Part shown: in pieces, positions 5,426 to 59,988 of the stretch
Layout: each line of letters starts with the position of its first letter
How positions within the stretch are numbered: the stretch's first letter is position 1
IMG/VR virus record: IMGVR_UViG_3300012153_000089
Location: 64,001-128,000 of that record
Length of the DNA: 64,000 nt
Reading direction: 5' to 3' (one strand)
From: a virus
Taxonomy: Duplodnaviria > Heunggongvirae > Uroviricota > Caudoviricetes
The notes under the pieces: generated by a model
Told to the model about the DNA's origin: nothing
What the model saw: the letters and a program-made list of their open reading frames with translations, nothing else
Database searches by the model: none
Position numbers and translations under genes: made by a program

Positions 5426-5688
5426 TAATAATTTATCTCCCTTTGTGTATATGTATTTTTGGATTGATGTCTCTCTGCTTAGCCAGTTACATTGGAGGAC
5501 TTCTCAATCTGCTCGTCATATGTTCCACCACCTTCTCAGAGTAAACTTGCTGCCTCTATATAATCACGCAAGCGTGTTATTTTAATCTCCGTCATTCTTT
5601 CATATACTCTAATATGCTTCTCTTTTCAAAACCAATTTCTTGATGAAACTATTATTTTACTTTGTTTTCGTTTCAACCTTACTTATTC

Positions 5689-5736
5689 AGTATAGTTCAA
5701 CGATTTTATTTTGTAAAGATATATTTGTTATTTTAT
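5689..5736 (-). promoter_or_regulatory. sigA-type promoter for replication genes (TTTACA-N17-TATACT) with partial upstream operator
   Basis: -35 at 5717-5712, -10 at 5694-5689; ATAAAATAACA at 5736-5726. Confidence 0.6.
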
Positions 5737-5763
5737 TATTTAAAGAACTAGGGGAAATTCCCC

Positions 5764-6135
5764 CTACTCAAACCCCCTTACAAATCTATTGAATCGCACC
5801 TTGGGATTGACGATGTGCTTGTTATAGATAATATCGGGATCTTTACAGTTTAATTTATCGAACTTATCTTGGGTTATATATTCCTGAAATAATCTTTCCA
5901 ACGTTTTAATTGGGTCAGCAAAATATGTATCTTTAAATTCCTCCGGCGAATCAAATCTTGTGCTGTCAATCAATTTTTCACGGTAATCATACACAAAATC
6001 ATCAATATAAAAGTTCGACTTTCCTACACAATTATCTATGAGAGTCTCTATATCAGACTTAAATAAAAAGATTATCATCGCCTTCAATTCAATCGCTCTT
6101 TTGTCAATGTCCAAAGCATCGAAAATTTGTTGCAT
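5764..6135 (-). CDS. hypothetical protein heading replication region
   Basis: RBS GAGGG; GGGGAAATTCCCC hairpin at its end. Confidence 0.6.
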   Translation of the reverse strand: MQQIFDALDIDKRAIELKAMIIFLFKSDIETLIDNCVGKSNFYIDDFVYDYREKLIDSTRFDSPEEFKDTYFADPIKTLERLFQEYITQDKFDKLNCKDPDIIYNKHIVNPKVRFNRFVRGFE

Positions 6136-6194
6136 ACCATCATACCCTCTCGTAAAAAATATGTTATCTAGATGTAATATTTAGCTATGTACTA

Positions 6195-6245
6195 ATAATA
6201 ATCCAACTTTTGGCGCTTGACAATCACATTTGGTAGCCGACTAAA
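6195..6245 (-). promoter_or_regulatory. promoter TTGTCA-N17-TATTAT with 18-bp operator ATTTGGTAGCCGACTAAA
   Basis: -35 at 6223-6218, -10 at 6200-6195; operator 6228-6245 identical to 11611-11628. Confidence 0.65.
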
Positions 6246-6318
6246 TTGTATTGACATATGCATAAATATGGAATCAGATCCATATTGATGTCGCATGATG
6301 TCGAATAATGATAATCAC

Positions 6319-6332
6319 AGAACCTATGTTCG
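6319..6332. promoter_or_regulatory. LexA/DinR (Cheo) SOS box
   Basis: AGAACCTATGTTCG matches Bacillus GAAC-N4-GTTC; minus-strand TATAAT immediately upstream. Confidence 0.7.
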
Positions 6333-6847: not shown

Positions 6848-6859
6848 CACTTATTTACA

Positions 6860-8273: not shown

Positions 8274-9311
8274 TTATTCTTCAGTGCCATATAACTTATT
8301 TATAGTATCAATATTTAAGAAATTTCTTCTAATAACATCGATATTAAATGTACCATCCTCTTTTTTTCCTACATCAAAATGTTCGCAAATATCATAGTAT
8401 TCCTCTATTCCTAGTCTTCCCCGTTCTCTGTGCAGGTCTCTAGCCATTTTAAGCATACCGCTATTGCGCAGATTAATCGCTGTTAGCATTGGGAAGTTAT
8501 TAAATTCTCCAGCCTTTTTAATTCTTCGACCCAATATTTGACCTTGTGTTGGTCTACCGTCATCTTGATTGCTATTAGTCGCAGCAGTTCTCAGATGAAC
8601 AGCAGTTTTTAATATATAGCCATTATCAACTAAAACATTGTGTCTAGATTTTATAGATTCCGATACCAATCCATTGTTTTTAAGGTATTTATCTTCTTTA
8701 TTTGCACTCTTCAAGATTTCATAAAGATTACTAGAGATTAGTATCTCTCTACTCGTAACTCCATCTGCTGTGTCATTGAACAACTTTATCTTATATTTAT
8801 CTTTTATATTTGTCTCCGATATATGTTCCATTTTCATATTTGCTAATTCACTCATAACGTTACCTGATATGCCTTCCCAAACTCCTTGCACTACGGCCTG
8901 ATCTTGAGCATTAATTAGACTGTCTACTATGTTGTCAATTTGTTTCTCTGTAAACAGCATCAATGAACTATCATCCACAAACTGGCTGTACCACTCATGT
9001 GTAGTTATGGCTATCAAAGGATTAATATTGTCCTTGCGGAGATCCTGCTCAATGGCCCACTGTATATAATTTCTTGCGACACTACCCGCATGTCTTAATG
9101 ATGAAATTTTTGTAGCCTTTAATGTAAATAAAAACTGCGAAATATCCTGTAAATTAAAATCATAAAGATCCTTGTTTAAAGTTGATTCCATTATTGCAGT
9201 TTTCCTCAATATGGTAGCATATGATTTTCTGGTTGACTCTGTGCTTAAACTCTTAAGGTATCTATCTTTTTGATCTTTATTGAAAAAATCATTGAAGTAA
9301 ACCTTATTCAT
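8274..9311 (-). CDS. mrpR: MrpR/YopR-like lytic-cycle repressor (catalytically degenerate tyrosine-recombinase fold)
   Basis: KDRYL...TRKSY...KDLYDFN...NYIQWAI N-domain; catalytic Arg motif replaced (WEGISGNVMSEL); follows a YopQ-like gene as in SPbeta. Start set at ATG 9311. Confidence 0.75.
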   Translation of the reverse strand: MNKVYFNDFFNKDQKDRYLKSLSTESTRKSYATILRKTAIMESTLNKDLYDFNLQDISQFLFTLKATKISSLRHAGSVARNYIQWAIEQDLRKDNINPLIAITTHEWYSQFVDDSSLMLFTEKQIDNIVDSLINAQDQAVVQGVWEGISGNVMSELANMKMEHISETNIKDKYKIKLFNDTADGVTSREILISSNLYEILKSANKEDKYLKNNGLVSESIKSRHNVLVDNGYILKTAVHLRTAATNSNQDDGRPTQGQILGRRIKKAGEFNNFPMLTAINLRNSGMLKMARDLHRERGRLGIEEYYDICEHFDVGKKEDGTFNIDVIRRNFLNIDTINKLYGTEE

Positions 9312-10629
9312 TGGCTGCTTCCCCCTCAAATAACCTTGAAAAATAAGCAATAAGCTTATCCCGAACTCTTTTGTTACCTGTCAATATTTTTTTCTCATTT
9401 AATAAAGAAATTAATTCTGCATCTTCAAAATCTATTAGCTCTACATATCTTTCAATTTCATCTAAACTTAGCTCATTTGATTGCATATATTTTGACATTA
9501 CAATGTAGCCAATAAACATCAAGGGATGACTCATCGTGCGATTCTTACGTTGTTTGATGTCGGGTGAAAATTCATCCGGGTAATTCCCAACTAAATACGC
9601 AAAAAATTCATTCAGATATTTCGATGTTTTGATGATATCTAGCTGCCTTTGAAGATGATAAACATTATCAATAGCATATGTCATAATATCAAAAATCGTT
9701 AGTTCTCCCGCAAGATCACTAATCATACTAGCTGAAGCTATCTGTTTTCCAATTTCCGATTTTTGTTGTAGGTCAGAAACTACTTTATCTGATAATCTTT
9801 CTTGCGCTAATTCTTTTCTTCTTTCTTTCTTCAATACATTTATTGTATTTAATTGACTGAAAAATTTCTTAGCGGTTTCAAAATCGTATACTCGGATAGA
9901 TAATATTTCATTCAATTCAGCCTTTGGATTGATCTGCAAAGCAGCCACAGCCCCCTGAAGACGATGAAAGCCATCAAGTATAGAGATAACTGCGCCGTTA
10001 TTGATGGTAAACGTTTTAGATTCCGCGTGATATGTTACTGGGTCAACTTCCGTTGAATATACATTAAGAATGATCATATCTTCAAAGTATTGATTCTTAG
10101 CCATCTTTGATGTGATCCTTTTAACACTCGCCTTATTAACTATTGGAGTTTTAACTATCCCTCCAGATTTATTCTCTTTATAAACTACCCCACGTTGTGT
10201 TTCTTCGTCATAGATGATGAGTTGACTGTTGACCATTGTAACTAATTTTTGTATAGAAATTTTAGTTAAGTAGCTGTCATACTTTATTTGTATAACTTCA
10301 TCAAAAGTTAGTGGTAATGATAATTTGTCAGCATCTTCGCTAGAAAGAGCATTTTCCGAATCTCTTATTTCTCTGTCTCCAAATAAAGATTCTGGATTTA
10401 GCTTTTTATCTTTCAATAAATCATATAAACCACGAGTCAATCCAATAAGATATTGTAATTCTGTCTCTTTGATTATTTCTTCATTTTGTATTAATGACTG
10501 TGGTAAGCCAAAAGGCACATTATATTCTGCGAGACTCATATTTAACTCATACAATTTTCGTCTAGAATGCTTAACTTCCATTAATGCATCAATTATTCTT
10601 TGTTCAATTTCTTCTCTTTCAATTTTCAT
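9304..10629 (-). CDS. YopQ/SroE-like DGQHR (DndB/ParB-like) protein
   Basis: 441 aa with ILDGFHRL motif; adjacent to MrpR-like gene. Confidence 0.7.
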   Translation of the reverse strand: MKIEREEIEQRIIDALMEVKHSRRKLYELNMSLAEYNVPFGLPQSLIQNEEIIKETELQYLIGLTRGLYDLLKDKKLNPESLFGDREIRDSENALSSEDADKLSLPLTFDEVIQIKYDSYLTKISIQKLVTMVNSQLIIYDEETQRGVVYKENKSGGIVKTPIVNKASVKRITSKMAKNQYFEDMIILNVYSTEVDPVTYHAESKTFTINNGAVISILDGFHRLQGAVAALQINPKAELNEILSIRVYDFETAKKFFSQLNTINVLKKERRKELAQERLSDKVVSDLQQKSEIGKQIASASMISDLAGELTIFDIMTYAIDNVYHLQRQLDIIKTSKYLNEFFAYLVGNYPDEFSPDIKQRKNRTMSHPLMFIGYIVMSKYMQSNELSLDEIERYVELIDFEDAELISLLNEKKILTGNKRVRDKLIAYFSRLFEGEAANE

Positions 10630-12216: not shown

Positions 12217-12248
12217 ATTATTTACTGTCTCTATGTGAAATCTACATT

Positions 12249-12554
12249 TTACCTAACTTGAGCCAGCGGAATTCCATTGTTGCTGAAAAATGAATTTAAG
12301 TCTTCTACAATTTCTCCAATTTGGTCATCGCTTGCAATCTTACCCTGTAAATAAGAATGCTTTTCAACCACATCTCGAATTTGACTTTGACGATCTTGAG
12401 AGGAGTTGTTGAAATAAGGGGACAACGCGGCAACTAATGCTGAGAATGCGCCGCCTTCCAATTTTATTGACCCCGCACTATCAACAATCATAGCTCCAGT
12501 ACTATATCCGCCTAGTGCTTGTCTTACTAGATTCTCTAATCTGTAATCATTCAT
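12249..12554 (-). CDS. hypothetical protein
   Basis: RBS GGAGG; stop lies inside an 18-bp junction palindrome. Confidence 0.6.
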   Translation of the reverse strand: MNDYRLENLVRQALGGYSTGAMIVDSAGSIKLEGGAFSALVAALSPYFNNSSQDRQSQIRDVVEKHSYLQGKIASDDQIGEIVEDLNSFFSNNGIPLAQVR

Positions 12555-13039: not shown

Positions 13040-13085
13040 GAGACACGCCCCTTATTTTGTATGTAAAACTTGCATTTTATTTATT

Positions 13086-14092: not shown

Positions 14093-14142
14093 CCTCCCCC
14101 GTGAAACACATCTTTCATTGATTCTTGCTGGATATAGAAATG

Positions 14143-14451: not shown

Positions 14452-14491
14452 TCATTTGCCTCACTCTCAAGATAGTAAAATAGCCATTTGA

Positions 14492-15010
14492 TTAAGACTC
14501 AGCAGCCAATAATCCAGCAACTCGATCTAACTCATCTTGACTGTGAACAGTGCCTCCACTATTCATCTGTAAATACCATTCAAGCACTTCTTTACGAGTT
14601 TGAAGGTTATTAACATGAAAACTCAAGCGTACCATCATTGGAATCTTATCTTCAAAGTCTTTATAAAAGTGACCAAATGCTTTAATTTGATTTCTAAGGA
14701 ACCCAAGACATGCTGTAAGACGTTGTAAACCATCAACGCATACAAACCAGCCATCTCCTTTTCCCTCTGTTCCTTGCCATTTAGTATGATTAAAGTAAAT
14801 ATCTAAACCAGACACTCCTTCGCGTAACAAGTGCTCTATATAAAGTTCCTGTTGGCCCAAATTCCAAACGTATCCGCGTTGAAAGTCTGGAATTAATTCC
14901 AATCCCATTTCTTCAATATATTCGTCAAGTGTACTCTCCAAATATCTTAAAGACACGTCTACTGAATAATTGTTGCACTGTATGTATGGCTTAATCTCTT
15001 TAAATTTCAC
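14492..15010 (-). CDS. DUF262 / ParB-like domain protein
   Basis: IPDFQRGYVW...VDGLQRLTA motifs. Confidence 0.75.
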   Translation of the reverse strand: MKFKEIKPYIQCNNYSVDVSLRYLESTLDEYIEEMGLELIPDFQRGYVWNLGQQELYIEHLLREGVSGLDIYFNHTKWQGTEGKGDGWFVCVDGLQRLTACLGFLRNQIKAFGHFYKDFEDKIPMMVRLSFHVNNLQTRKEVLEWYLQMNSGGTVHSQDELDRVAGLLAAES

Positions 15011-15037
15011 ATTTAGTCTCCTCTCTAGATAAAACAG

Positions 15038-15331
15038 TCATTTGATCATGTCTTGTCTTGAATTGATGATTCGATGTATCTCGGTTAATACCATAGCATT
15101 ATTAGGGTTATTAGATGTCTTACTTAGTAGTGTATCTAAATAATCCGTTGGTAAATCTGTTAGAGACACACTCTCTGACGATTTACTGATCAGTGAATAC
15201 CTATCGCTTTGAGCCAACAGTTCCTCTATTTCTTCAAATTCATCCATAGACATACCGTATTTTATTAAAACCTCATTTGTATGCTTATCATTTATAATGT
15301 ATCTTTCTAGACTAAACATCATTTCAGACAT
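15038..15331 (-). CDS. hypothetical protein
   Basis: Lies between palindromes at 15029 and 15353. Confidence 0.55.
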   Translation of the reverse strand: MSEMMFSLERYIINDKHTNEVLIKYGMSMDEFEEIEELLAQSDRYSLISKSSESVSLTDLPTDYLDTLLSKTSNNPNNAMVLTEIHRIINSRQDMIK

Positions 15332-15387
15332 TCTAAAACACCTCTCCTCCTAATGAAATAGTTATTTTAAAAACTCTAGACAACTAC

Positions 15388-15561: not shown

Positions 15562-15660
15562 TTACTCACCTCAATAACCTTATGAAATAAACCTTTCACA
15601 ATCATATGTATGTTGCTACTATATATCTATCCTAATTATATAGTAGCAACAGTTTATAAA

Positions 15661-16451: not shown

Positions 16452-16678
16452 GATATTATCTCCATTCTGTTATTTTATTATTTTATTATTTTATAAATCA
16501 AGTGAAAGACTTATTTCATTAGCTTACTCATAATTTTATTTGACTTCTTTATGGCAGCATTCATTTTTTCTGTTTGTTTTTTGCTGGGAACACAGCTACC
16601 TTTTCCACACCAAGGGGTCTTAATTGAAGGGTTACACTGGCACATTAATTAAACACAGCTCCTTTTAAAATACTTCAT

Positions 16679-16987: not shown

Positions 16988-17029
16988 TCCTTCCCTCCCC
17001 TATTAAGATGAAAGAATCCTTTCATATAA

Positions 17030-17527: not shown

Positions 17528-17882
17528 GATTCCTTACATATTTGTTTCCGTGTATGTAAATCAGTTGGAGAGGAGAATAACCATAGTTTCTTTCAATCCA
17601 TTTTGTAAAAGTCATTTTAATAATCGCTCCATCCTGCGTTTTAATGAAATAATCTATTTATTCATCCCATACAGTTCTAGGTCTTATAAAGTGATGATGT
17701 ATTTCGTTATCTATAATTTCTTTTCTTACACATTTAATTTTCTCTACACTATTTAAGGTAATGATTTCACCTACTTCATACTCCCATTGCCCATTTGTCT
17801 CTTTTTTTCCCATCGATTTGAATCCATTTATTCCATTTGTCCACAGAACATCACTCCTTTTCTACGTAAAATATTCATTTCA

Positions 17883-18473
17883 TTATCTATGCTTATAGTT
17901 AGTTGAAAACATATCTTTTCTCAGTTTAGCCATCTTACCATTGCTTCGATTAAGGAATACTACTCCTTCTGCCTCAACATCTGGATTTAGTAGTGACTTG
18001 AGACTAAGAATCCATTCTTTCCACATATCATAATCGTCTGTTTGTGGAAAATCCTTATAAACACTTACTCCATCCTTATGAGGTTCAAACGTATACCACA
18101 TATTTCGATCTAAGCCATATTTATTTCCTTGAATATTCACGCCAATAGCCTCTCCATAATATTCACCATCTTTAAATTTCTTTGATCTCTTAGAAACTCG
18201 ATTAACAACAGCTTCGTTGATGTATTTATATTGAGGATCGTTAAGTTCAGTCTTCACATAACCCTTATGTTTTTGATTTCTTGCATAGATTTCAAGCTTA
18301 ACTCCATCAACAATAATTTTCACATTCGTTCCATCTATCTTCTCAAGAACAATTGCCTGTGCTGGATCAAAGCACCATTCCCAACCGCTTGCTACTTCTG
18401 TTGTACATAGACCAGTCTCCATATCACGGATAAATGGAGGAAACATTTTTTCGAATTCTAGATACTTAGTCAC
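17883..18473 (-). CDS. RNA ligase-like nucleotidyltransferase
   Basis: Motif I EKIDGTN, GEAIG, motif IV EGVVF, motif V AKLR. Confidence 0.75.
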   Translation of the reverse strand: MTKYLEFEKMFPPFIRDMETGLCTTEVASGWEWCFDPAQAIVLEKIDGTNVKIIVDGVKLEIYARNQKHKGYVKTELNDPQYKYINEAVVNRVSKRSKKFKDGEYYGEAIGVNIQGNKYGLDRNMWYTFEPHKDGVSVYKDFPQTDDYDMWKEWILSLKSLLNPDVEAEGVVFLNRSNGKMAKLRKDMFSTNYKHR

Positions 18474-18537
18474 TAGTTCAATATTTTCACGATTAATAAT
18501 TTATTTCTCCTCTAGTTAATTTATTTGGGTGAAAGGA

Positions 18538-18777
18538 TCATTTTACACTAACCAACTCATCAATTTTTGCTTTTGCTGCTTCACTAGCTTCTTCTTTGGT
18601 ATCAAAAAATGTTTTATTTCCATGCCATTCTGAATCATATAGATGTGAACCGTCTTTGTATAACTTAAATTTCCATTTGGAATTATTCCGTTCAGATAAA
18701 TTAATCTCAACATTATGCTTTTTGTATTTACCTTTATAACCACTCCATTGCTTTTCTGTCAATTTCACCTTGTTCAA
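18538..18777 (-). CDS. hypothetical protein
   Basis: Lies between palindromes at 18529 and 18784. Confidence 0.55.
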   Translation of the reverse strand: MNKVKLTEKQWSGYKGKYKKHNVEINLSERNNSKWKFKLYKDGSHLYDSEWHGNKTFFDTKEEASEAAKAKIDELVSVK

Positions 18778-18992
18778 CTCCTTATGAAATTATAGTTTCA
18801 TTTAAACAGTACTGGGCATAAGTAATGTTGGAGGGATGACAATCACATCCCCATCTTGTTTACATAATTCCTTAAACATATCTCGCTGTTCTTCAGTTGG
18901 AAATCCATATGTATTCTCTGTAACTATACCAAAAAAATTTTCAACGACAACCACTTGATACATCGTGATCACCTCTTCTATTTGATAATCTT

Positions 18993-19802: not shown

Positions 19803-19918
19803 CCAGTTAGTTCTAAGATGTTATATTTACATATATTTTAACATCGCTGTTCTTCTGGGTAAAATTAATCTTTCATAAAAAGAAGACACAGCTCAATGTG
19901 AACCGTGCCTAAATCCTA

Positions 19919-20860: not shown

Positions 20861-21002
20861 CGGTTGTGGGCATGACTTATTAAGTAGGTCTAAAGAATTA
20901 TATGCTGATTTCCCAAATTTAACAATATGAATTTAAATGTCAGTATAAAATCAGACTTTCATCAAACCGAGTAGGACTCAATGTTGTATCGGTACTGTTA
21001 TA

Positions 21003-21637: not shown

Positions 21638-22642
21638 TTAGTGAACTCCATAAATAAGTTTAATATTTTGCTCATTTAAGAAATCAAGCCTTAACCTTGA
21701 AATGTTCACTTTGCCCTTGCCTACATTGTAGTGTTCGCAAATTGCAAGGTAATCTTTTTTGTTGATCTGTCCATGTTCAATATAAAAATCCTTAGCCATA
21801 TTGAGCATTCCACTATTACGTATATTGATAGGGGTGAGTTTGAGTAGATCAAATGTCTTACTTATCCTTTTTAAACGTCTATTGACCATTGCCGAAGGTG
21901 CGCTTTCATTTTCTGAGCCACGTGCGTCTCTCGCTGTTCTAATAATAAAATCATTGTCACATAGTAGACTATGGTAGCTCTTCATCCCCTCTGTTACTAC
22001 ACCATTATTTTTTAGATACTTCGTTTCTTTGGCTGCCTTTTGAAGGAGTATGTACAATTCATAGGAGATGTTCATTTTTCTTCCTTTGTTTTTTTGATCT
22101 CCATCATCAAACAAAGTTATTTCAATGGTACTACCCTTTTTTACAATGTGTTCTAATTTAGCATTTAATAGTTCACTAAATTGACGACCTCCCAGCCCTT
22201 CATATATGCCCCTGATAAGAGCCTTATCTTGAAAATTAACACATTCGCTTACCAATTCGTTTATTTTTTGTTCACTAAATAGCGTCGCTTCGCTTTTGTC
22301 AACCATTCCTTCAAACCATTCTCTTGATGTCATTGCATCCAATGGATTGATATTATCGGTACGAAGATCCTGTTCTATTGCCCATTGAATATAATTTTTA
22401 ATTCGATTTCCTGCACCTGTTAATGTACTAAGAACTGAAGAATTCATAGTCATTAACAGTTGTTTCAATTGTGCAAGGTTGAAATTATATAGGTCTGTTA
22501 CGAATGTATTTTCGAGCAATGCTGCAATCTTAAAGATGCGCTCATTTGATCTTCTTGTATGCTCGTTCATGTTTTTTAAATATCTTTCTTTTGTTACTGA
22601 GTTGAATAATCCTTCTGTGTAAATAATATTCATGTTGGTCAC
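21638..22642 (-). CDS. second MrpR/YopR-like repressor paralogue
   Basis: Shares blocks with 8274-9311 (NYIQWAIEQDLR.DNINPL, YLKNNG.V.E..KS.H, LT.IN.RNSGML.MA.D). Confidence 0.7.
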   Translation of the reverse strand: MTNMNIIYTEGLFNSVTKERYLKNMNEHTRRSNERIFKIAALLENTFVTDLYNFNLAQLKQLLMTMNSSVLSTLTGAGNRIKNYIQWAIEQDLRTDNINPLDAMTSREWFEGMVDKSEATLFSEQKINELVSECVNFQDKALIRGIYEGLGGRQFSELLNAKLEHIVKKGSTIEITLFDDGDQKNKGRKMNISYELYILLQKAAKETKYLKNNGVVTEGMKSYHSLLCDNDFIIRTARDARGSENESAPSAMVNRRLKRISKTFDLLKLTPINIRNSGMLNMAKDFYIEHGQINKKDYLAICEHYNVGKGKVNISRLRLDFLNEQNIKLIYGVH

Positions 22643-22828
22643 CTCATTCGTTTAGTTTAATTATTAGTTTCATCTATAAAATTATTAACCAAGCTTAGAG
22701 TGCTTATGAAGATATGATTCAGGTTCACAGATATCTTGGTTGCTGTGGTATTCTCTTAAGTCCGAATGATTGTATTAGTTAGCCGCTATAAAATAACTGT
22801 TTCATCCAAATAAACCTAGATAGCAAGA

Positions 22829-23955: not shown

Positions 23956-24315
23956 TTAACATGCTAGGCCAAGTTGCATTTGGCTAATGATTGATCTTGC
24001 TCCCTTTAAAACTGCTTTTACAGATTTGCTATTATAGGTACTGAAGTCAAATATATATCCTTCATGCTCAAATAACGGATTTTCTTCTGACACATTATTT
24101 AATTTTTCAATTAGTCTAAACATGTTTTTGAAGTAGGCTTTATTCAAAACCTTCATAGAATCGGTAAAATCCTTGGTTAATGTTTCACCTATAACCGCTG
24201 AAGGATCAATATGCGTTAACTCCAATCTTAAAGCACTTGTACTCACAAGAATGGTTCCTAATCCAAACGTAATCCGATTCTCATTTATCATTTTTAATCT
24301 TCCTTTCTTGATCAA
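23956..24315 (-). CDS. hypothetical protein (likely start MINENR)
   Basis: RBS AAAGGA after palindrome 24311. Confidence 0.55.
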   Translation of the reverse strand: MIKKGRLKMINENRITFGLGTILVSTSALRLELTHIDPSAVIGETLTKDFTDSMKVLNKAYFKNMFRLIEKLNNVSEENPLFEHEGYIFDFSTYNSKSVKAVLKGARSIISQMQLGLAC

Positions 24316-24330
24316 ATACTGTTTTTATCT

Positions 24331-24956: not shown

Positions 24957-25123
24957 TGTATATAGCCACTCCTTAGTATTTTGATTTAATTGTATACTTT
25001 ATTTGAAATCGAGATATATGGCGGTATTGTTTCTAAATGAAATCGTTGTTTCAGTTAGTCTTATGTATCGTTACGGTACGTTGTTGCTGGTTGTTGTACA
25101 TCGTTGCTTAACTTTATAACATA

Positions 25124-26301: not shown

Positions 26302-26555
26302 ATAAGTTTCCCTCCCTTCTATTTTGAATGTGTTTATGTAAAAGTAACATTTCTTAGAGATTTATCTTTTTTCACATATTGGTCTAAGCGTCCCATCCTG
26401 AATACGTTGAATTCGATCACTATTGTCCCACCTAACGGTATAACCCACTCCAACAGGATTCGCAACCACAGTACCTGTATTTCCTGTTGTTCTTTTAACT
26501 CTGTATCCCTTTTTAAAGTTCATTGTTATCCCTCTTTTCTGATCAAATTAAAATT

Positions 26556-26768
26556 TCATTTAGAATTATCTTCTTCTTTCTTTAATCTGTGCATTGTAAA
26601 TGTGTATACTGCAATTATAAACAATATAGAACAGAATCTTGTAATCATTGCGTTATAATCGGAGTGGGCAAAAGATATCCCCATACGCACTACATCATAT
26701 GCCAAAAGAATATGTACTACTAACCTAAGAAGTGAAACTCCTCCATCATTCAATTTTAACAACTTCAT
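26556..26768 (-). CDS. small membrane protein
   Basis: RBS AGGAGG; two hydrophobic segments. Confidence 0.5.
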   Translation of the reverse strand: MKLLKLNDGGVSLLRLVVHILLAYDVVRMGISFAHSDYNAMITRFCSILFIIAVYTFTMHRLKKEEDNSK

Positions 26769-26776: not shown

Positions 26777-26995
26777 TTATCTCATGAACCTAAAGTTCAA
26801 TGGAATACCCAATCTGTCTTCAATTGTTCTGATTTTACTCTTCAGGATCATTCTCTCTTCCCAATTTAAATTGTCATTCATTAGATAATCTTCTTTGAGA
26901 CTTTTCAGTAGATCTCTTGCACTCAACCCTAACACCTCTTTATATATTATCTTCTCTATCTGAATATAATTATACAACAATAAAAATACATACAC
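26777..26995 (-). CDS. hypothetical protein (likely TTG start LSARDLL)
   Basis: RBS AGAGGTG lies inside the ORF-track 5' end. Confidence 0.45.
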   Translation of the reverse strand: MYVFLLLYNYIQIEKIIYKEVLGLSARDLLKSLKEDYLMNDNLNWEERMILKSKIRTIEDRLGIPLNFRFMR

Positions 26996-27009
26996 AAGTA
27001 TTATTTTAT
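26969..27009 (-). promoter_or_regulatory. early promoter with 13-bp operator variant
   Basis: ATAAAATAATACT, TTGTGT-N17-TATAAT. Confidence 0.6.
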
Positions 27010-27060
27010 TGTTATTGAAGATGAAAGTCTTGTTTCATCATCAAATTTTGTTAGTTAACC

Positions 27061-27218: not shown

Positions 27219-27237
27219 ATCGTATAAAAGACTGGTT

Positions 27238-30080: not shown

Positions 30081-30119
30081 TATAACCTTGGATTATATAA
30101 ATATCAAGTATTATTTTAT
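30079..30119 (-). promoter_or_regulatory. early promoter with 13-bp operator variant
   Basis: ATAAAATAATACT, TTGATA-N17-TATAAT. Confidence 0.7.
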
Positions 30120-30143
30120 CATAATTAGAGTGAAATAAGCATT

Positions 30144-38553: not shown

Positions 38554-41121
38554 ATGGCATTGGATAAGCAAGTATACATATATAGCGTCGATACTAGCGC
38601 TTTTTTCACTCAAAAGGAAAGTTTGCTGAGAAAAGAAATCAACAAAGCTAAACAAAAGAATGAGAATGAAAAAGTAAAAGAACTAGATAAGAGTTTTCGA
38701 AATATCATTGACTCAAACATCCACTTGAAACGAAAACTAAACCCACATAGCTTGTCCATTAACAACAAAGTCTCATTGTTTGAGTCCTCTCTGACACGGA
38801 CGTTGAGTCTAGAAGAAAATAATACATATGAAGATGTAATAATTGTAGAAACACACTATTATAGTATTTTCGATAGCCTTATCGAGAATGGATTTACTCT
38901 AAATGATGAAGAGTATGTTCCTTTTACAGCATCAGCAGGTCAAATAAGAACTAAAAAGACTGTATTTATGAAGAAAACGACTTGGGACAATGTTAAGGAT
39001 ACACTAACATGTGGCCTTTCTGAAGAAAAGATAAATAAGCACTACGATATTAACAAAGACAATAAGAGATTTTATGGTGTAAGCATTAATAAATATTTGG
39101 CTTATCTTGCACTTTGTTCAAGTGCTACAGATGAATGGAAGGATTTTAACATTGACCGTTCGATTGTAGTTGAAGATTTTGAGACTTCAATTAATACAAC
39201 GGTAGATTTTGTTGACGATGTAACTTATAACGTTAAACGCAGAAAGATGGATATTCCCATTAATCATACTGATGGGTGCGGCATGATTTTGCCAAGGAAA
39301 AGTAAAAAGTCGTTCATGGTTCGACTTCCATGGGTCAAAGGATTGCTAGTTCCCTTCCCATACGACAAATTCATAGATAAGAATAATTCCACAGTTACAG
39401 ATATCTATGGCAAAAAACATGATGTACTTAAAGAAAAAATTGAAGTAATTTTCACCAAAAGCCAGTTTAAGATGTGGAAATATTATGAGAATTGGGATGA
39501 ATACAAAAAACTTTACAAGCAATACAAGTGTCATGCTAGTTTAACTAATATAGAAGAAGATGAACTGAGCTCTGCTCGGCTATGTTACCAGATGTTGCAA
39601 ACTCTGACCCTCATCTCAGATGAGCAACTGGACAATCTAGTTTCAATAACTAGAGGAGAAATTCAAGAAACAGTTAACAACCCCGAAAAAATGCTAAATC
39701 TAATGGGGGCTTCTAAAGGACGTTTTGAGGATAAGAATAATTTACAACAAGCTCTTTTTATATATCCAGAACTGCTTTTAGATCCGCATGTAAAAACCAA
39801 ACTAAAAGAAGCCAAGGCTAGTCTTATGAGAAAAGTGTATACAGGTAAAATTAAAGTTGAGGGCTGCTATACTTTTATTGCTCCAGATTTGTATGCATTT
39901 TGTGAGCATTTGTTTAACGGAGAGGAAAATCCTCTAGGTTTACTACAAAACGGTAAAGTTTCATGCAAGGCGATAACGGGAGGTACAAAGGTTGACCTCC
40001 TGCGTTCTCCACACCTGTATAAAGAACACGCAGTAAGGATGAACACAAGAAATGAACTCACAGAAAAATGGTTTATTACTAAAAACATCCACACTTCAAT
40101 TCATGATCCAATTAGTAAAGTGCTTATGTTTGATTGTGACGGAGATAAAGTCACAGTTAGCAATGATGAGACGTTGGTTTCTGTAGCTGAAAGGAATATG
40201 GTTGATGTTGTTCCACTTTACTATGATATGAAGAAAGCTCCAGCAGAAAAAATAAACAGAAAAAGCGTTAAAGAGAATTTAAAAAGAGCGTTTTCTGGAA
40301 ATATCGGTATTGTAAGTAACGATATTACTAAGCTATGGAATAGTGACTCAGTTGATATTGATTTAGTTAAAATTAGAACAATGGAAAATAACTTTGAGAT
40401 TGATGCAGCAAAAACAAACTATAAGCCTGTCCGACCAAAGCATATCAAAGCAATGTTTAAACCTTTCAATAAAATGAAAATGCCTCATTTTTTTACTTAC
40501 GAAAAATATAGGCTTAAGCCACAAGACAGGAAAAAGAAAAAGCCGAAACGAACCACAGAACCATGGAATGAATCCACAACAGTAAATAGAATTAAAAACC
40601 TTTTTCCTGATGTTCGTATTAAATTTAAAGCAGTCACTGATATGTATGAGTTTGATTATAGCAATCTGATGCGCGCTAGTAGAGATAAAAACGAGCTGTA
40701 TTATTCAATTAGGGATAAATATGAAGAGTTAAATAATGAAAAATGGAAGTTTTCCTCAAAAAGTAGTAATGGCGACATAAATAATTCTGACCACCTTCCT
40801 GTCTATGTTTATATTAGACAAGAATTAATGAAGTTATGTAACGATCCATTCTTAATCGCAGATGTTATTATCGAACATCTATATGCGGGTTCGAATAGTA
40901 GTTATAAGACTACACTATGGTCGAGTTTCGGTGACATAATCGTGGAGAACTTGAAGCACAACCTTTCTACTAGATTAAAGCTTTGTGAGAAATGTGGAAC
41001 CGTGTTTTCCAATAAAAGAGATAAAAGTATGAACAATAAGAAATATTGCGACCCCTGTTCTGTTGAAGTGAGAAAGGACAAAGTAAGAGAGAATGTTAGA
41101 AATTTGAGGAGTAAGAGTTAA
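38554..41121 (+). CDS. yonO: YonO-like single-subunit two-barrel RNA polymerase
   Basis: 855 aa with LRSPH and MFDCDGD catalytic motif; SPbeta synteny with HU and yonK. Confidence 0.9.
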   Translation: MALDKQVYIYSVDTSAFFTQKESLLRKEINKAKQKNENEKVKELDKSFRNIIDSNIHLKRKLNPHSLSINNKVSLFESSLTRTLSLEENNTYEDVIIVETHYYSIFDSLIENGFTLNDEEYVPFTASAGQIRTKKTVFMKKTTWDNVKDTLTCGLSEEKINKHYDINKDNKRFYGVSINKYLAYLALCSSATDEWKDFNIDRSIVVEDFETSINTTVDFVDDVTYNVKRRKMDIPINHTDGCGMILPRKSKKSFMVRLPWVKGLLVPFPYDKFIDKNNSTVTDIYGKKHDVLKEKIEVIFTKSQFKMWKYYENWDEYKKLYKQYKCHASLTNIEEDELSSARLCYQMLQTLTLISDEQLDNLVSITRGEIQETVNNPEKMLNLMGASKGRFEDKNNLQQALFIYPELLLDPHVKTKLKEAKASLMRKVYTGKIKVEGCYTFIAPDLYAFCEHLFNGEENPLGLLQNGKVSCKAITGGTKVDLLRSPHLYKEHAVRMNTRNELTEKWFITKNIHTSIHDPISKVLMFDCDGDKVTVSNDETLVSVAERNMVDVVPLYYDMKKAPAEKINRKSVKENLKRAFSGNIGIVSNDITKLWNSDSVDIDLVKIRTMENNFEIDAAKTNYKPVRPKHIKAMFKPFNKMKMPHFFTYEKYRLKPQDRKKKKPKRTTEPWNESTTVNRIKNLFPDVRIKFKAVTDMYEFDYSNLMRASRDKNELYYSIRDKYEELNNEKWKFSSKSSNGDINNSDHLPVYVYIRQELMKLCNDPFLIADVIIEHLYAGSNSSYKTTLWSSFGDIIVENLKHNLSTRLKLCEKCGTVFSNKRDKSMNNKKYCDPCSVEVRKDKVRENVRNLRSKS

Positions 41122-41326: not shown

Positions 41327-41602
41327 ATGAATAAAACAGTATTGGTAAATGCAGTATCAGAGACAACCGGATTGACTAAGAAAGATACAGAACAAGTTAT
41401 CAACGAGATGCTACAAGTTATTACAAGTGCGCTCGCCAATGGAGATAAGGTACAATTGCATGGCTTTGGTAACTTTGAAGTTCGTGATCGCGCAGCACGG
41501 AAAGGGCGCAATCCTCAGACTGGCGAAGAAATGCACATTCCAGCCAGTAAGTCTCCAGCATTCAAACCTGCTACAGCTCTAAAAAACGCTGTAAAAGAGT
41601 AA
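41327..41602 (+). CDS. hup: HU-family DNA-binding protein (YonN-like)
   Basis: MNKTVLV...[34 protein letters not shown]. Confidence 0.95.
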
Positions 41603-41732
41603 TTTCATAGTCTTCTTATAATAAAATAACATTAATAAATACATATAACTCGAAAGAATTAGGGAGACATCTAATGTCTCCTCTCTTCTATTGTTTTAGT
41701 TTTAAATAATATGCATACGGGGGCAATATAAT

Positions 41733-51472: not shown

Positions 51473-52693
51473 GTGTTGCTATTGAATTCAATTAGCGACT
51501 ACAAAAAAAGAGTTGGTAAACAAAAAAATGTTGAGTCTTCTACTGTCAAACATGCAAAGCACTCGATTAAAACTTTCTTTAGACACTCGCCATCTTTTGA
51601 GGAAGTCTTGTTAAATAACGATGAAGTAAAAGTCCCAGTTCAGATTGTGTCTGATGCAAAAATACCAACTGTTAAAACTATACTGATGGAGCCGGGTTAT
51701 ACAATAAGAGCAGGACAAATGGTTAAACGATCTAATGGCGAGACTTGGCTTTGTCTTAGTGACGACCCCAACGATGTATATGTTAGTGGGAAAATTGAAA
51801 GATGCAACTTTGATTTAAAGTGGATCAACAAAGAAGGACAACTTCAAACCTTCCCATCCATTCTATACTTTAATGCTCGTTCCAACTTTGGTACTGAAGA
51901 AGATAAGGTTATGAATCTACCTGCGGGACGAAGACAGATTGTAGTGAGTAAAAATAATCAAACTCATTCAATACAGCGTGATACACGTTTCATAATTGGC
52001 AATGAAGCATTTAAGGTAATTGATACAGATTATATGTCAGATGATGGATTAGTAAATTTGAGTTTACAATCCGATCAGATTAATGTGACCACAGACAATA
52101 TAGAGTTAGGTATTGCAGATTATAACAAGTTGACCAAATACACTCTACAAATCATTAATGACAACCCCCTCTCAATTAGCCAACACCAGAGCGCTAAGGT
52201 AAACGTTAAAGTGACTAAAAATGATAACCCAGTGCCACAACCTGAAGTTGTTTATGAAAGTACAACTCCTGAAATTGTTCAAGTTGACTCGAATGGGAAT
52301 TTAGCAATACTCCAATCCGGTGATGCAGAGATTAAGGTTTCCGCTTATGGTTTGACCCAGACGTTGGAAATTTATGTCGCTCCCACTAGTCATTATGATT
52401 ATGTTGCTACTATAGACGGAGCAAATGAAATTTACTCAAATCGCCAGTCTGAATATGTCGCTACATTTTGGAATAATGGATTACAGTTATCTGATGAAAG
52501 TATGTTTTCATTAACTTCCGAAGATGGCTCCCCCACTCTCCTCGCTGCAATTACCTCGCAAGATTCAATTAAAAACACCTGTATAGTCAAAGCAAACAGT
52601 AACCGTAAGCTGGGTACTGTTATTTTGCACGTTAAGAATGCCAATGGATTATCGTTTGGACAAAAAACAATAAAAGTAAAATCACTAATTTAA
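51473..52693 (+). CDS. head-closure-like protein with Ig-like C-terminal domains
   Basis: Beta-rich; S.TPEIVQVDSNGNL Ig-like motif. Confidence 0.55.
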   Translation: MLLLNSISDYKKRVGKQKNVESSTVKHAKHSIKTFFRHSPSFEEVLLNNDEVKVPVQIVSDAKIPTVKTILMEPGYTIRAGQMVKRSNGETWLCLSDDPNDVYVSGKIERCNFDLKWINKEGQLQTFPSILYFNARSNFGTEEDKVMNLPAGRRQIVVSKNNQTHSIQRDTRFIIGNEAFKVIDTDYMSDDGLVNLSLQSDQINVTTDNIELGIADYNKLTKYTLQIINDNPLSISQHQSAKVNVKVTKNDNPVPQPEVVYESTTPEIVQVDSNGNLAILQSGDAEIKVSAYGLTQTLEIYVAPTSHYDYVATIDGANEIYSNRQSEYVATFWNNGLQLSDESMFSLTSEDGSPTLLAAITSQDSIKNTCIVKANSNRKLGTVILHVKNANGLSFGQKTIKVKSLI

Positions 52694-55266: not shown

Positions 55267-56046
55267 ATGAAAACAATTACGATTGCTGCACCTGTAAGGA
55301 ATAGAGAATGGATTCTGCCAAATTATCTGTTGAGAATAATCGAGATAAACTATCCCAAATCACTGATCGATCTACATTTTGTAGTTAATGATAGTGCAGA
55401 TAGAACGTTTGAGCTTTTAAATGAATTTAAGAAGGACAATAAAGGACTATATAACAACATTAGAATTGATGTAATCAATCAGAACGTTCCCAATGATGAA
55501 AGAGAGTTTGCCGTTAGAAACAGTCATATATATAAGCATTTGAGTAACTTAAAGAATTACATTATGAGCAAAGTTCGAACCGATAAATTGATTTTTATCG
55601 ACACAGATATTCTTGTTGAACCTAATGTCGTTACTAAGTTACTTAAACACGGCAAAAAGATCATTTCAGGTTTGATTTTTAATGGATATCTAACTAGTAA
55701 TGATAAACCTTATTTATATCCAAATATCATGCAGTTGGATGATAAGGGACAATATCGACATTTGACAAATTACCATGTCAAAACTGCCCCCACCTTACTT
55801 TGTTCTAGATTACAACGAGTGGATTTAACAGGGGCAATTATATTATTGGATAGGTCGGTTTATAAGTCCGTAAAATACGGATTTCATCCACAAGGTGAGG
55901 ACGCATACTTCTGTAAGATGGCTCAAGACAACGGTTTTGAGCTTTTTTGTGATTTAAGCGTTTATTGTCAGCACATTATGTCACCAGAATATCTAAAGGA
56001 GTTTATTAATGAAGCAAAAAACAATACTGTACTTTCCTGTCCTTAA
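55267..56046 (+). CDS. GT2-family glycosyltransferase
   Basis: AAPVRNRE, VVNDSAD, FIDTD (DxD), GEDAYFC. Confidence 0.85.
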   Translation: MKTITIAAPVRNREWILPNYLLRIIEINYPKSLIDLHFVVNDSADRTFELLNEFKKDNKGLYNNIRIDVINQNVPNDEREFAVRNSHIYKHLSNLKNYIMSKVRTDKLIFIDTDILVEPNVVTKLLKHGKKIISGLIFNGYLTSNDKPYLYPNIMQLDDKGQYRHLTNYHVKTAPTLLCSRLQRVDLTGAIILLDRSVYKSVKYGFHPQGEDAYFCKMAQDNGFELFCDLSVYCQHIMSPEYLKEFINEAKNNTVLSCP

Positions 56047-57016: not shown

Positions 57017-57977
57017 AATTCTTTGTACCAACAACTCGCAATTAATTAAACAAGGCATTGCGTCGGGTTTTGGAAATCATGGTCACGAAGTATTTATTAT
57101 GGAGGGACCCTACCAGCTTTGGGATAAACCTAAAGAAATTCAGGTTGAATTGTTTAAAGAATTTATCGAAAGCCACTCAATTGATATGGTTTTTTCTGAG
57201 TGTTTTGCTAACTTTGCTGAAGATATTTTTGAATATACAAAAGCGAAAGGTATTTTTCATGCTTATTGGGCAATTGAAGATACCCCACATGACCATTGGA
57301 TAGGCGATCACTGGTCTAACTATGCTGATTACATCTTTACAACTACAGCAGAATGTCTGCCTAACTATTGGAATAAAGGTAAGCCTGCTGAATTAATGCT
57401 TTTCGGATGTAATCCTACTTTTCACAAACAGGTTACAACAGAAATCCATAGAGATATTGTTTTGATAGCGAATAATTACGAGCGTAGAGCCAACCAAACT
57501 AAGAACTACATCCTGCCAGTTGTAGAGCATGGGTTTGATGTAAGTATTTACGGCAATGAATGGTGGATGGATTCCGATCGTGAAACAAATTTATTAAAAC
57601 ACTCTGAGGTTTACAAGGGTTATGGTGCTTATGAAGATTTACCATATTTATATTCATCTAGTAACATCATTCTTGGTCAAAATTTAGATGACCAGTCTAT
57701 TACACAGACTTCAATGAGACCATTTGAAGCATTGGCTGTTGGTGGAGGAATATTGGTATCCCCTTATACCCCTGCGCAAGAGTATTTGTTCCATGAGCAT
57801 ATTTATCTCCCTAGAAATACAGACGAAATTCTCCTAATGGTTCAAGAAGTATTAAATATGACTGATAGACAACGACGCATAAAAGCCAAGAAGGCTCAGA
57901 AATTTGTATATAAATATCATAATTATGATCTAAGAGCAGAACAAGTGATCAATGCATATCACGGACATAAATCTTAA
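56994..57977 (+). CDS. CgeB/YkvP-family glycosyltransferase
   Basis: YWAIEDTP, DYIFTT, LMLFGCNP, SMRPFEALAVGG. Confidence 0.8.
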   Translation: MVLFLKLRILCTNNSQLIKQGIASGFGNHGHEVFIMEGPYQLWDKPKEIQVELFKEFIESHSIDMVFSECFANFAEDIFEYTKAKGIFHAYWAIEDTPHDHWIGDHWSNYADYIFTTTAECLPNYWNKGKPAELMLFGCNPTFHKQVTTEIHRDIVLIANNYERRANQTKNYILPVVEHGFDVSIYGNEWWMDSDRETNLLKHSEVYKGYGAYEDLPYLYSSSNIILGQNLDDQSITQTSMRPFEALAVGGGILVSPYTPAQEYLFHEHIYLPRNTDEILLMVQEVLNMTDRQRRIKAKKAQKFVYKYHNYDLRAEQVINAYHGHKS

Positions 57978-57990
57978 GGGAGATGAATAA

Positions 57991-58473
57991 ATGGCAAAAT
58001 CAAATAAACTAACTCTAGCCAAACTTAATGCTATTGACAGTAAAAATAACCAGCGAAAAACAATCTATGTAACTCCCGATAATCACGAAGTAAATGTACA
58101 TACATATTTCCGTGAATCACTAATGGAGGATGTGGTAACAGAATATATTTCCATTGTAGATGAGTTGAGGTCTCGTACTGAGATTGATGATATTTTGATT
58201 AAAAGTACTTTGAGTTTATTCAATACACTGGTAATGAAAAAATTTACCGACCTCCCCTTTCCTAAAAAGTTGGACTTGGAGAGTTTAGTCAAATATTCTC
58301 GTGTACTTTTGGATAACGACATTACTACAGAAGTAATCAACTCTTTTCCTAAAGAAGAGTTAGATAAGTTGGAACAACGGTTTAAAGCAGCTCAACAACA
58401 AGCAGCTAAAGTAATTGCTGAAATGGCTGTTGCTTCAGTAGCACAAGCTCAGGAAATTTCAGATGCAAGTTAA
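57991..58473 (+). CDS. tail assembly chaperone-like protein
   Basis: Position between tail tube and tape measure. Confidence 0.5.
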   Translation: MAKSNKLTLAKLNAIDSKNNQRKTIYVTPDNHEVNVHTYFRESLMEDVVTEYISIVDELRSRTEIDDILIKSTLSLFNTLVMKKFTDLPFPKKLDLESLVKYSRVLLDNDITTEVINSFPKEELDKLEQRFKAAQQQAAKVIAEMAVASVAQAQEISDAS

Positions 58474-58888
58474 GACTCAACAAGATCTGATTAAGTTTCT
58501 ACAAAAGCTGAATCAGCCTATTGGAAAAGCATTAGTTAATGATGTAGCGAAGACAGTTAAACAAGTTCAGAAAGAAAAAGTAAAAGAAGAAGTCTATGAT
58601 GTGTATGAACCAACTATGTACTCACGTACTGGTCTATTAGGTAGCGAAGATAGTATGAAATCTGAATTAATCAATGACACTACTCTGGTAGTCGAGAATA
58701 TTCGTTCAGATGGTGACAGGAATGTTGCAGAAGTCGTGGAATCCGGTAGCGGGTATAATTTTTCATTCGATTATGCAGGTGTTCCACGTCCATTCACTGA
58801 GGCAACACGAGAAGAATTGAGGAATACAGGTGCTCACAAGGCAGCTCTGTATAAAGGCTTAAAACGCCAAGGAATTAATTTGAAATAA
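58463..58888 (+). CDS. tail-completion (HK97 gp10-like) protein
   Basis: VYDVYEP..YSRTG...RPFTE pattern. Confidence 0.55.
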   Translation: MQVKTQQDLIKFLQKLNQPIGKALVNDVAKTVKQVQKEKVKEEVYDVYEPTMYSRTGLLGSEDSMKSELINDTTLVVENIRSDGDRNVAEVVESGSGYNFSFDYAGVPRPFTEATREELRNTGAHKAALYKGLKRQGINLK

Positions 58889-58957
58889 TAAAACACAGGG
58901 AGCGTGTTGATTATGGCATTGGAAAGTTACGATCAATATACATAAGGATGATGTTAA

Positions 58958-59959
58958 ATGAGTAAAAAAGAAGTTAAGCAAAACACATTGCGAGAACCAG
59001 CCAAGAAACAAGCAGAAGTAACAGAGGAAATGTGGCTTCAAGTTAACGAAGACTATAGGGTAATCGCTGAAGAGTTCGTTTCAGTACAAGATCTCTCCCC
59101 CGCATCACGAAAGCAATATACAAGTGTGATACGTCAGTTTGGATGGTACATGGTAAACTCCATGAACAACAAGCCTTTCTATAAGATCACAAAACGCGAT
59201 TTTTTAAGATACCTCAGTTACATACGCGACAATAGAAAAATGTCTTCCTCTGCAATAGGACTCCGTAAATCTGTCATCTCCAGTCTTTGCAACCACATTG
59301 AGAACATCATTGCCGAAGAAGAAGAGAACTATAAACAGTTTAGAAATTTCACTCGTGGCCTCCCTCCTATCGCAAAAAACCGTGTCTATGAAAAAGTCAA
59401 AGTAACTAAAGATGAGTATGACATGTTAATGAGCGTCCTTGAAGAAGATGAAAATTGGCTAGGTATGGCATGGCTTGCGACAGCGTTTAGAGTTGGGGCA
59501 AGACGGTCAGAGATTATCCAGTTCAAAACCGAAATTCTAGACTATAAGATCCCTGAAGGACAGAACTATATAACCTCTCATACAGTTAGGGGTAAGGGAA
59601 AATCCATAGATGGTAAACCTTTACAATATATGTTCCCTCTTGATGTTATTCCTCATATTCAAAAGTGGATCAGTACTCGTGGGTACGAGAGTGAGTATAT
59701 TTTTACCACAAAATACGGCAATGAGATTAAGCCAATGTCAGCAGCATGGGCAGATGATTTTTGTTCCAACACACTGTCAGACATTTTAGAGCGAAGAGTT
59801 AACGTACATATATTTAAGAATTCATGTATTACATATCTATTGGAGTCAGGCGTTGACATTAATTTGGTTTCTAAATTCGTAGCACATCACAATGACATCT
59901 CAACAACATCAATTTATGATTTGCGCGATTTTGAAGATGAGAAAAATCAAATTTTCTAA
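58958..59959 (+). CDS. YomM-like tyrosine recombinase
   Basis: GARRSEI (R), GKGK, VHIFK (HxxK), HHNDISTTSIY; SPbeta-like position before tape measure. Confidence 0.75.
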   Translation: MSKKEVKQNTLREPAKKQAEVTEEMWLQVNEDYRVIAEEFVSVQDLSPASRKQYTSVIRQFGWYMVNSMNNKPFYKITKRDFLRYLSYIRDNRKMSSSAIGLRKSVISSLCNHIENIIAEEEENYKQFRNFTRGLPPIAKNRVYEKVKVTKDEYDMLMSVLEEDENWLGMAWLATAFRVGARRSEIIQFKTEILDYKIPEGQNYITSHTVRGKGKSIDGKPLQYMFPLDVIPHIQKWISTRGYESEYIFTTKYGNEIKPMSAAWADDFCSNTLSDILERRVNVHIFKNSCITYLLESGVDINLVSKFVAHHNDISTTSIYDLRDFEDEKNQIF

Positions 59960-59988
59960 GTGAATCACTGTAAAATTACCATTTCATT

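Follow-up and report, generated by a model that had tools for sequence, protein, structure and literature searches.

The window analysed here, a 64,000-nucleotide stretch comprising bases 64001–128000 of a 152,503-bp provirus record (G000), carries many copies of an 18-bp palindrome, RTVAAA-N6-TTTBAY, in which two inverted arms enclose a 6-bp spacer. We read these palindromes, with a probability of roughly 0.6, as the cores of 28-bp dif-like heterospecific tyrosine-recombinase sites, positioned at gene junctions, which would serve the position-preserving exchange of cassettes between related phages. An earlier note on this DNA had proposed tyrosine-recombinase-type palindromes bounding promoter-less cassettes, and the layout of the sites, together with breakpoints that appear to lie inside the motif, lends support to that core idea. 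The cassettes were there described as shuffled, which does not agree with the genome comparisons: the spacers are unique to each junction and colinear between genomes, and gene order would therefore be kept, with exchange affecting nothing but what a slot contains.

Judged by its gene content, G000 is an SPbeta-like temperate phage, because it encodes a YonO-type RNA polymerase (window 38554–41121, with a match to the RdRP Pfam family), YomM-like and YopP-like recombinases, and two presumed YopR/MrpR proteins. Relatives were identified via proteins; when 12 kb of the window were compared with the phage collection by megablast, there were no matches. The spacer statistics given below refer to eight genomes with 469 sites, and the slot-by-slot comparison to G000 and the three relatives G001–G003. 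Per genome, the eight relatives carry 42–80 copies of the motif, versus 0–5 copies of a control pattern. The motif is absent from more distant YonO-bearing phages, and three genomes (G004, G005 and G006) have neither a YomM/YopP-like gene nor the motif. A de novo scan of G004 and of a further genome, G011, for other enriched palindromes found none.

Number, placement and anatomy of the sites

Twenty-eight strict matches to the palindrome occur in the window, versus 1.07 (standard deviation 1.0, maximum 4) in 100 dinucleotide-preserving shuffles. All 23 strict matches listed in the earlier note were recovered, and five more had been overlooked (starting at 1318, 19859, 41591, 52494 and 55870). 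Six of its seven near matches have one mismatch, while the one at 6361 has two. One-mismatch sites are only weakly enriched as a class (23 versus 15.7); those at 15353 and 25037 correspond to strict colinear sites in relatives, and those at 26338 and 21301 have colinear partners in relatives by spacer sequence alone. Over the whole 152.5-kb provirus there are 62 strict matches versus 3 for the reversed pattern, about 52 of them inside a block of approximately 95 kb composed of small minus-strand genes.

The site at 59970 was the only one that the earlier note had noticed in intergenic gaps of the core head/tail genes. The late half contains a second intergenic site at 41591, after a small gene downstream of the YonO-like RNA polymerase, and two strict matches inside late coding sequence (52494–52511 and 55870–55887). 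The latter two may be chance matches. The spacer of the match at 55870, TACGGA, recurs in each of the three relatives, but the coding DNA around it is conserved as well. The match at 52494 has the spacer GTATGT, whereas the corresponding position in G001 (offset by about 4.1 kb) has GTTCAT, which is also found in G002 and G003.

The sites are listed below in window coordinates, with no strand assigned; all are strict matches apart from the two marked as degenerate, and the genomes named are those in which the same spacer is found.

1318–1335, site with spacer TACAGC; colinear in G001, G002 and G003
5643–5660, site with spacer CTATTA; G002, G003
12235–12252, site with spacer TCTACA; G001, G003, with the one-base variant CCTACA in G002; a blastn block end at G000 76251 falls within it
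13063–13080, site with spacer CTTGCA; G001, G003; both flanks unrelated to G001
14101–14118, site with spacer CACATC; one end of a one-gene block 97% identical between G000 and G001 (G000 78101–78492)
14475–14492, site with spacer TAGCCA; other end of the 78101–78492 block; G002
15029–15046, site with spacer CAGTCA; G001, G003; neither flank similar, also by tblastx
15353–15370, degenerate site (one mismatch), spacer TAGTTA; colinear strict sites with this spacer in G001 (85616) and G003
15582–15599, site with spacer TAAACC; G001, G002, G003
16502–16519, site with spacer GACTTA; G001, where arm positions 1, 3, 16 and 18 all differ
17008–17025, site with spacer GAATCC; G001–G003
17866–17883, site with spacer TATTCA, left end of a slot; edge of a 679-bp block 99.85% identical in G001
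18529–18546, site with spacer GGATCA, right end of the slot; other edge of the 679-bp G000–G001 block
18784–18801, site with spacer TTATAG; G001
19859–19876, site with spacer TTAATC; G001, G003
20945–20962, site with spacer TCAGAC; a 96% identical G001 block stops exactly here (G000 84962)
22788–22805, site with spacer TAACTG; G001–G003; both flanks unrelated to G001
24311–24328, site with spacer TACTGT; G003
25037–25054, degenerate site (one mismatch), spacer TCGTTG; colinear in G001–G003, strict in G001 and G002
26542–26559, site with spacer TTAAAA; G001, G003
27021–27038, site with spacer GTCTTG; G003; a G001 blastn block ends here
27224–27241, site with spacer GACTGG; G002, G003
30130–30147, site with spacer TAAGCA; G002, G003; followed by a separate ATAAAATAATAC box and an 11/12 promoter-like site
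31669–31686, site with spacer CACGAA; its sole partner (G001 56838) is non-colinear and within the chance level of about 1.7
31833–31850, site with spacer TCACTC; G001, G003
32809–32826, site with spacer GGCCAC; G001, G003
41591–41608, site with spacer GAGTAA; G001, G003
59970–59987, site with spacer TTACCA; G001–G003; 10 nt past the stop codon of the YomM-like gene

By a crude open reading frame map, 37 of the 62 G000 sites are mostly intergenic, in a genome of which 10% is intergenic. In the modal layout a stop codon lies within one arm or at most 5 nt from it, and the next start codon follows 17–28 nt past the other arm, which bears out the placement originally described, at junctions between the stop codon of one small gene and the ribosome-binding site (RBS) of the next. 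Along the direction of the genes, the site lies on the stop codon or immediately behind it, and TAA or TGA often coincides with arm positions 2–4. Because the start is so close to the arm, most junctions can accommodate an RBS but not a promoter.

When bases are counted by position in 87 distinct early sites, the consensus lengthens to TYTNN-RTVAAA-N6-TTTBAY-NNARA, a roughly symmetric 11+6+11 bp layout (about 28 bp) as found in Xer/dif sites, which is also visible in the sites of SPbeta. In the same set of sites the first base of the spacer is seldom A and the last seldom T. Xer/dif sites have two different arms, for XerC and XerD, and this asymmetry was not found: the half-sites ATGAAA, GTAAAA, ATAAAA, GTGAAA and ATCAAA occur at similar frequencies on the left and on the right. 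Since both arms draw on the same set of half-sites, a single-recombinase system would appear to fit them better.

Invariant spacers amid replaced flanks

Every spacer is unique within its genome. The 469 sites comprise 188 distinct spacers, 114 of which are shared, and the shared ones recur in the same order in the four genomes tabulated. The earlier statement that the spacer varies is thus correct for any one genome, and fails between related genomes, where the spacer is the most conserved part of the site. G001 has 36 of the 62 G000 spacers (null mean 1.7, maximum 8); none of these differs in orientation, and 35 are colinear. At colinear positions 412 identical spacers were counted versus 12 with one mismatch (null 3), so that the spacer is far more conserved than its surroundings; arm positions 1, 3, 16 and 18 vary freely. 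The site at 16502 illustrates this, reading GTGAAA-GACTTA-TTTCAT in G000 and ATAAAA-GACTTA-TTTTAC in G001. None of 101 spacers in the first four genomes is palindromic.

The flanks of these sites are frequently unrelated. Among 606 same-spacer pairs in the eight genomes, both 60-nt flanks are at most 50% identical in 438. Between G000 and G001, 13 of the 36 pairs show no local nucleotide similarity within 150 nt on each side and 7 have no tblastx match within 500 nt on each side; for some partners, as at 16502, the longest uninterrupted match spans only 12 bp. One genome with direct terminal repeats (G010; 163,994 bp, YomM 78% identical) has these arms at 42 sites, but not one of its spacers is found in the other seven genomes; spacer sets are therefore clade-specific.

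Breakpoints of gene gain, loss and replacement do fall in the motif when related phages are compared, a check that the earlier note had proposed. Approximately 18 ends of G000–G001 blastn blocks lie within 13 nt of a motif, where chance would place about 2% of ends. Thirty-three pairs are conserved on one side of the site and unrelated on the other; when read from the conserved side, 28 of them show their first sustained mismatch at motif positions 16–20. Beside a conserved flank 57 of 64 arms are identical, versus 132 of 292 beside an unrelated one, so each arm travels with its flank and the junction is in or at the spacer. More than a third of the intervals between consecutive shared spacers (56 of 159) contain unrelated DNA. 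In G000 and G001 the slot bounded by TATTCA and GGATCA measures 645 bp and is filled by a block that is 99.85% identical, next to genes that are about 72% identical; the slots of G002 and G003, of 280 and 346 bp respectively, have unrelated contents. A near-identical pair of genomes differing by one cassette was sought among G007, G008 and G012, but their early regions are too diverged, with 1–2 blocks at 97% identity or more.

The same organisation is seen in the model phages. SPbeta has 34 sites with the core TAAAA-N6-TTTTA, versus 0.3 expected, and phi3Ts has 30. The two have 21 colinear spacers in common, five with both flanks unrelated, and base-sharp boundaries between them occur at SPbeta positions 83687 and 113663. 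A site just after yomM is present in SPbeta and phi3Ts (spacer GAGGGA) and in six further relatives (CTATCC).

Two details of the SPbeta comparison are recorded here as separate observations. Upstream of yorE, the same site in SPbeta (99497) and phi3T (89339) has its spacer reverse-complemented (TGATAA versus TTATCA), and about 15 nt of flank are inverted with it; inversion of a short segment that ends at the site might account for the difference. Within SPbeta 110881–111100, which contains the 'yorM' peak of MrpR ChAP-seq, there is no SPBRE, the operator discussed below; a copy of the palindrome, with a good RBS behind it, is found at 111028, within the annotated yorM, whose start may be mis-annotated.

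Alternative explanations, candidate enzymes and a possible mechanism

Four other explanations of the motif were weighed. The one that survives best, although we regard it as unlikely, is that the arms form the operator of a dimeric phage DNA-binding protein, regulatory or architectural, and that module exchange exploits the conserved 18–28 bp as microhomology on which annealing or recombination proteins of the phage act. A dimeric protein on duplex DNA would be expected to bind dyad-symmetric half-sites that do not covary. An annealing protein is encoded by SPbeta-like phages (yorG of SPbeta has a Sak4-like annotation), and laboratory hybrids arise readily through homologous recombination. A dimer reading the arms nevertheless leaves unexplained why the spacers are site-specific and near-invariant (412 versus 12) while arm positions 1, 3, 16 and 18 vary, and an operator offers no reason for the lack of duplicated spacers within a genome. 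The 12 bp of identity between some partners is, moreover, very short for recurrent and precise homologous exchange. A plain protein-binding site, which had been listed among the original alternatives, would not account for the invariant site-specific spacers.

A considerably less probable explanation is that a phage endonuclease cuts within the N6 spacer in the manner of BstXI, and that the junction-specific overhangs direct the ordered rejoining, by ligation or annealing, of fragments of co-infecting genomes. Unique centres between common palindromic arms would produce the same comparative pattern, and genes for a ligase and for several nucleases are found in SPbeta-like phages. The motif is not, however, associated with any candidate nuclease, and a genome cut at 60 places would be put at risk; an 11+6+11 layout with a 6-bp centre is the signature of a tyrosine recombinase, and two such genes are present.

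The motif might also be an SPBRE-type operator of the master repressor MrpR/YopR/SroF. G000 encodes two paralogous recombinase-fold proteins of phrog_5830 on the minus strand (8274–9350 and 21638–22642), both without catalytic residues, which we take to be members of the YopR/MrpR family. The first, in the region 8274–10629, lies after a phrog_5732 gene that we suspect to be YopQ-like. Both proteins as queries match one single locus in G001–G003, and the copy at 21638–22642 may therefore be specific to G000. SPBRE, the operator of this repressor in SPbeta, is likewise a repeated intergenic element (PMC10516654). The sequences are nonetheless unlike: 9 of 10 SPbeta MrpR ChAP-seq targets share CAAATACAAAWAATATGTATA at promoters, which does not resemble the palindrome, nor does the SroF box of phi3T, an asymmetric 26-bp element bound by a monomer (bioRxiv 10.1101/2025.11.27.690993), and G000 has a separate ATAAAATAATAC box at promoters, for example after the site at 30130. 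As both the sequence derived from the published targets and the phi3T box differ from the motif, and the palindromes mostly lie 17–28 nt from the start, too close for a promoter, this identity was rejected and is given next to no probability.

Further repeated boxes were noted near some palindromes. In G000 a second box, ATAAAATAATA(CTTG), occurs a few bases downstream of some of them (approximately 30079–30125, 26990–27015, 16460–16495 and 41612–41630), and its copy at 30107–30079 abuts an 11/12 sigma-A-like promoter. This box is probably the G000 counterpart of the SPBRE/MrpR operator. In SPbeta there are about 10 copies of AGAATAAAAATAAAATTA, among them those at 90637, 113683, 119409, 120659, 128335, 129180 and 132766; this sequence resembles the phi3T SroF box and often stands directly upstream of an RBS. 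It directly abuts the palindrome twice (113663 and 132746), and the SPBRE of SPbeta itself is a different sequence.

A hairpin in polycistronic mRNA, serving processing or translational control as once suggested, would suit a motif that is transcribed between a stop codon and the next RBS, but it is excluded for practical purposes by arms that do not covary (Watson-Crick pairing 0.46 versus 0.56 in shuffled partners for positions 1/18, and 0.40 versus 0.41 for 3/16), by a mean folding energy of the 28-nt sites close to that of shuffles (−1.6 versus −1.3 kcal/mol) and by a would-be loop that is different at each site within a genome. A role as promoter or terminator was likewise rejected, as promoter-like sites are not enriched (85 versus 91 in shuffles, over 20 kb), include few scoring 11/12 and are not tied to the motif, and no stable hairpin is formed.

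For the recombination sites that we favour, two candidate enzymes are encoded in the window:

37115–38191, minus strand, YopP-like tyrosine recombinase, candidate enzyme (Pfam Phage_integrase, 6.8e-15)
58958–59959, plus strand, YomM-like tyrosine recombinase, candidate enzyme (Pfam Phage_integrase, 4.2e-12; SAM-like domain)

The two genes match the XerA/XerC/XerD models at 6e-19 and 1e-16, below the curated cut-offs; for the YopP-like protein, matches to these NCBIfam models range from 6e-19 to 2e-11, also under cut-off. The latter protein had been described as apparently intact and does keep the full R, K, HxxR, H and Y set in alignment. The YomM-like protein is 58% identical to SPbeta YomM and 84–98% identical among close relatives; its nucleophilic tyrosine is present, and HxxK replaces HxxR, as it does in SPbeta YomM. 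Both genes occur in every motif-bearing genome that was searched for them, and co-occurrence does not separate the two. In our reading catalysis would fall to one of these phage recombinases, whether YopP-like or YomM-like, and a host Xer enzyme may also be involved.

Several points weigh against the interpretation of the palindromes as recombination sites. Its support is comparative throughout. Strong conservation is confined to the inner 6 bp of each arm, the outer 5 bp being weak at 0.2–1.1 bits, and a lysine occupies the position of the second catalytic arginine in YomM. Within-genome uniqueness of the spacers (0 duplicates versus 7.9 expected were the eight genomes independent) is no more than suggestive, because the genomes are related and the statistic is inflated; for three independent clades P is about 0.05. 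The intergenic gaps are short (about 40 nt), so that a breakpoint in the motif is hard to tell by position from one in the gap; breakpoint position alone is therefore weak, and most of the weight is carried by spacers that stay invariant where their flanks have been replaced. The crossovers in three laboratory hybrids of phi3Ts and SPbeta (Hyb1–3) lie inside 15–20 kb tracts in which the parents are at least 99.5% identical and not demonstrably at sites, and in such near-identical tracts they are uninformative on the sites. Finally, the incomplete genome G011 (66% complete) has YomM only and lacks the motif.

If the palindromes are recombination sites, two recombinase monomers would bind the inverted arms, which, being common to all sites, would recruit the enzyme at each of them. 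The 6-bp centre would be the overlap region for strand exchange, with cleavage presumably at the spacer borders, and exchange would be completed only between identical centres. Because each junction has its own centre, kept at that junction by relatives, recombination would be confined to the same junction of two co-resident genomes, either co-infecting phages or an incoming phage and a prophage. A single crossover would join the two genomes with gene order unchanged, and two crossovers at different junctions would replace the intervening cassette of RBS, gene and stop codon. Unlike centres would at the same time block deletions and inversions within one genome. Such a process would be the natural equivalent of the cassette exchange that recombinases carry out between heterospecific sites.

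The wider proposition, to which we give even odds, is that SPbeta-like phages including SPbeta and phi3T possess a genome-wide natural system of this kind, in which a phage Xer-like recombinase would act on 30–80 heterospecific dif-like sites whose unique 6-bp centres serve as positional addresses for single-gene swaps at fixed slots. It has long been asked whether the neat exchange of genes at their boundaries in phages depends on special linkers or on random illegitimate joins sieved by selection; the 'linker' idea is reportedly due to Susskind and Botstein. In the SPbeta-like family, at least one quarter of the early gene junctions appear, from the comparisons made here, to have dedicated and addressed crossover sites. 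Were this true, the sets of addresses would act as 'dialects' (G010 shares none) defining which phages can exchange genes, and modular phage evolution would have a dedicated molecular basis. Confirmation would account for the way in which accessory genes, those for defence and counter-defence among them, turn over slot by slot in these large temperate phages. It would also assign a role to YomM, YopP or both, which are orphan recombinases, and make available more than 100 natural recombination sites that are orthogonal to one another. The proposal lends itself to direct testing, since both SPbeta and phi3T have the sites and can be manipulated genetically in Bacillus subtilis.

Comparison with known systems

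A full-text literature search found no prior description of these sites, and several known systems resemble them in part. SPBRE belongs to the same phage family and is also a repeated intergenic element bound by a recombinase-fold protein, but it is another sequence, sits at promoters in about 10 copies, is asymmetric and is read by a monomer. The PeSLs of T4-type phages are short repeats between small accessory genes in plastic regions (PMC2839356, PMC4122927) and, like the present sites, coincide with boundaries of insertion, deletion and replacement between related phages. PeSLs contain functional sigma-70 promoters and terminator hairpins, produce mini-circles and are presumed to recombine by homology, whereas at most of the junctions described here a promoter would not fit, and the sites do not fold into a stable hairpin and have junction-specific centres.

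The earlier analogy with integrons fails. Cassettes of integron type, with attC and attI, have been reported in phage genomes (PMC9892861), and the likeness extends to arrays of mostly promoter-less single-gene cassettes between tyrosine-recombinase sites. Integron attC sites are nevertheless imperfect palindromes of 57–141 bp with paired R and L boxes, recombined as folded single-strand hairpins, compared with 18–28 bp here. Excision of cassettes as circles, entry at attI, changes in cassette order and the extra domain of IntI were none of them seen in G000. A search for IntI in G000 gave a partial match to the integrase_gron model only (1.1e-7, 31.6 bits versus a cut-off of 265), and no unique site resembling attI was evident.

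The closest documented parallel is the system of pdif/dif modules of Acinetobacter plasmids, on which XerC and XerD act. The comparison had been drawn at the outset and is apt, given the 11+6+11 bp layout and the dependence of pdif recombination on matching spacers (PMC13141974). Rearrangement and replacement of pdif modules between identical or near-identical 6-bp spacers have been demonstrated by PCR and sequencing (PMC13141974; see also PMC6449649). In both cases 28-bp sites, composed of two 11-bp arms and a 6-bp spacer, bound modules of accessory genes. The pdif sites differ in having unlike arms for XerC and XerD, modules of alternating orientation (C and D modules), few sites per plasmid, dependence on the host Xer enzymes, and modules that move between positions and plasmids. 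The phage sites have near-symmetric arms, number 42–80 per genome in one order, carry unique spacers tied to position and are accompanied by phage-borne Xer-like genes.

The logic proposed for them is also that of recombinase-mediated cassette exchange with heterospecific lox or FRT sites, in which only identical spacers recombine and two unlike flanking sites allow a clean replacement of the cassette between them that leaves the surroundings as they were. Common arms and differing spacers are features of both. The lox and FRT systems are laboratory designs with two or three variants, whereas the phage set would be a natural one, with at least 100 variants arranged along the genome.

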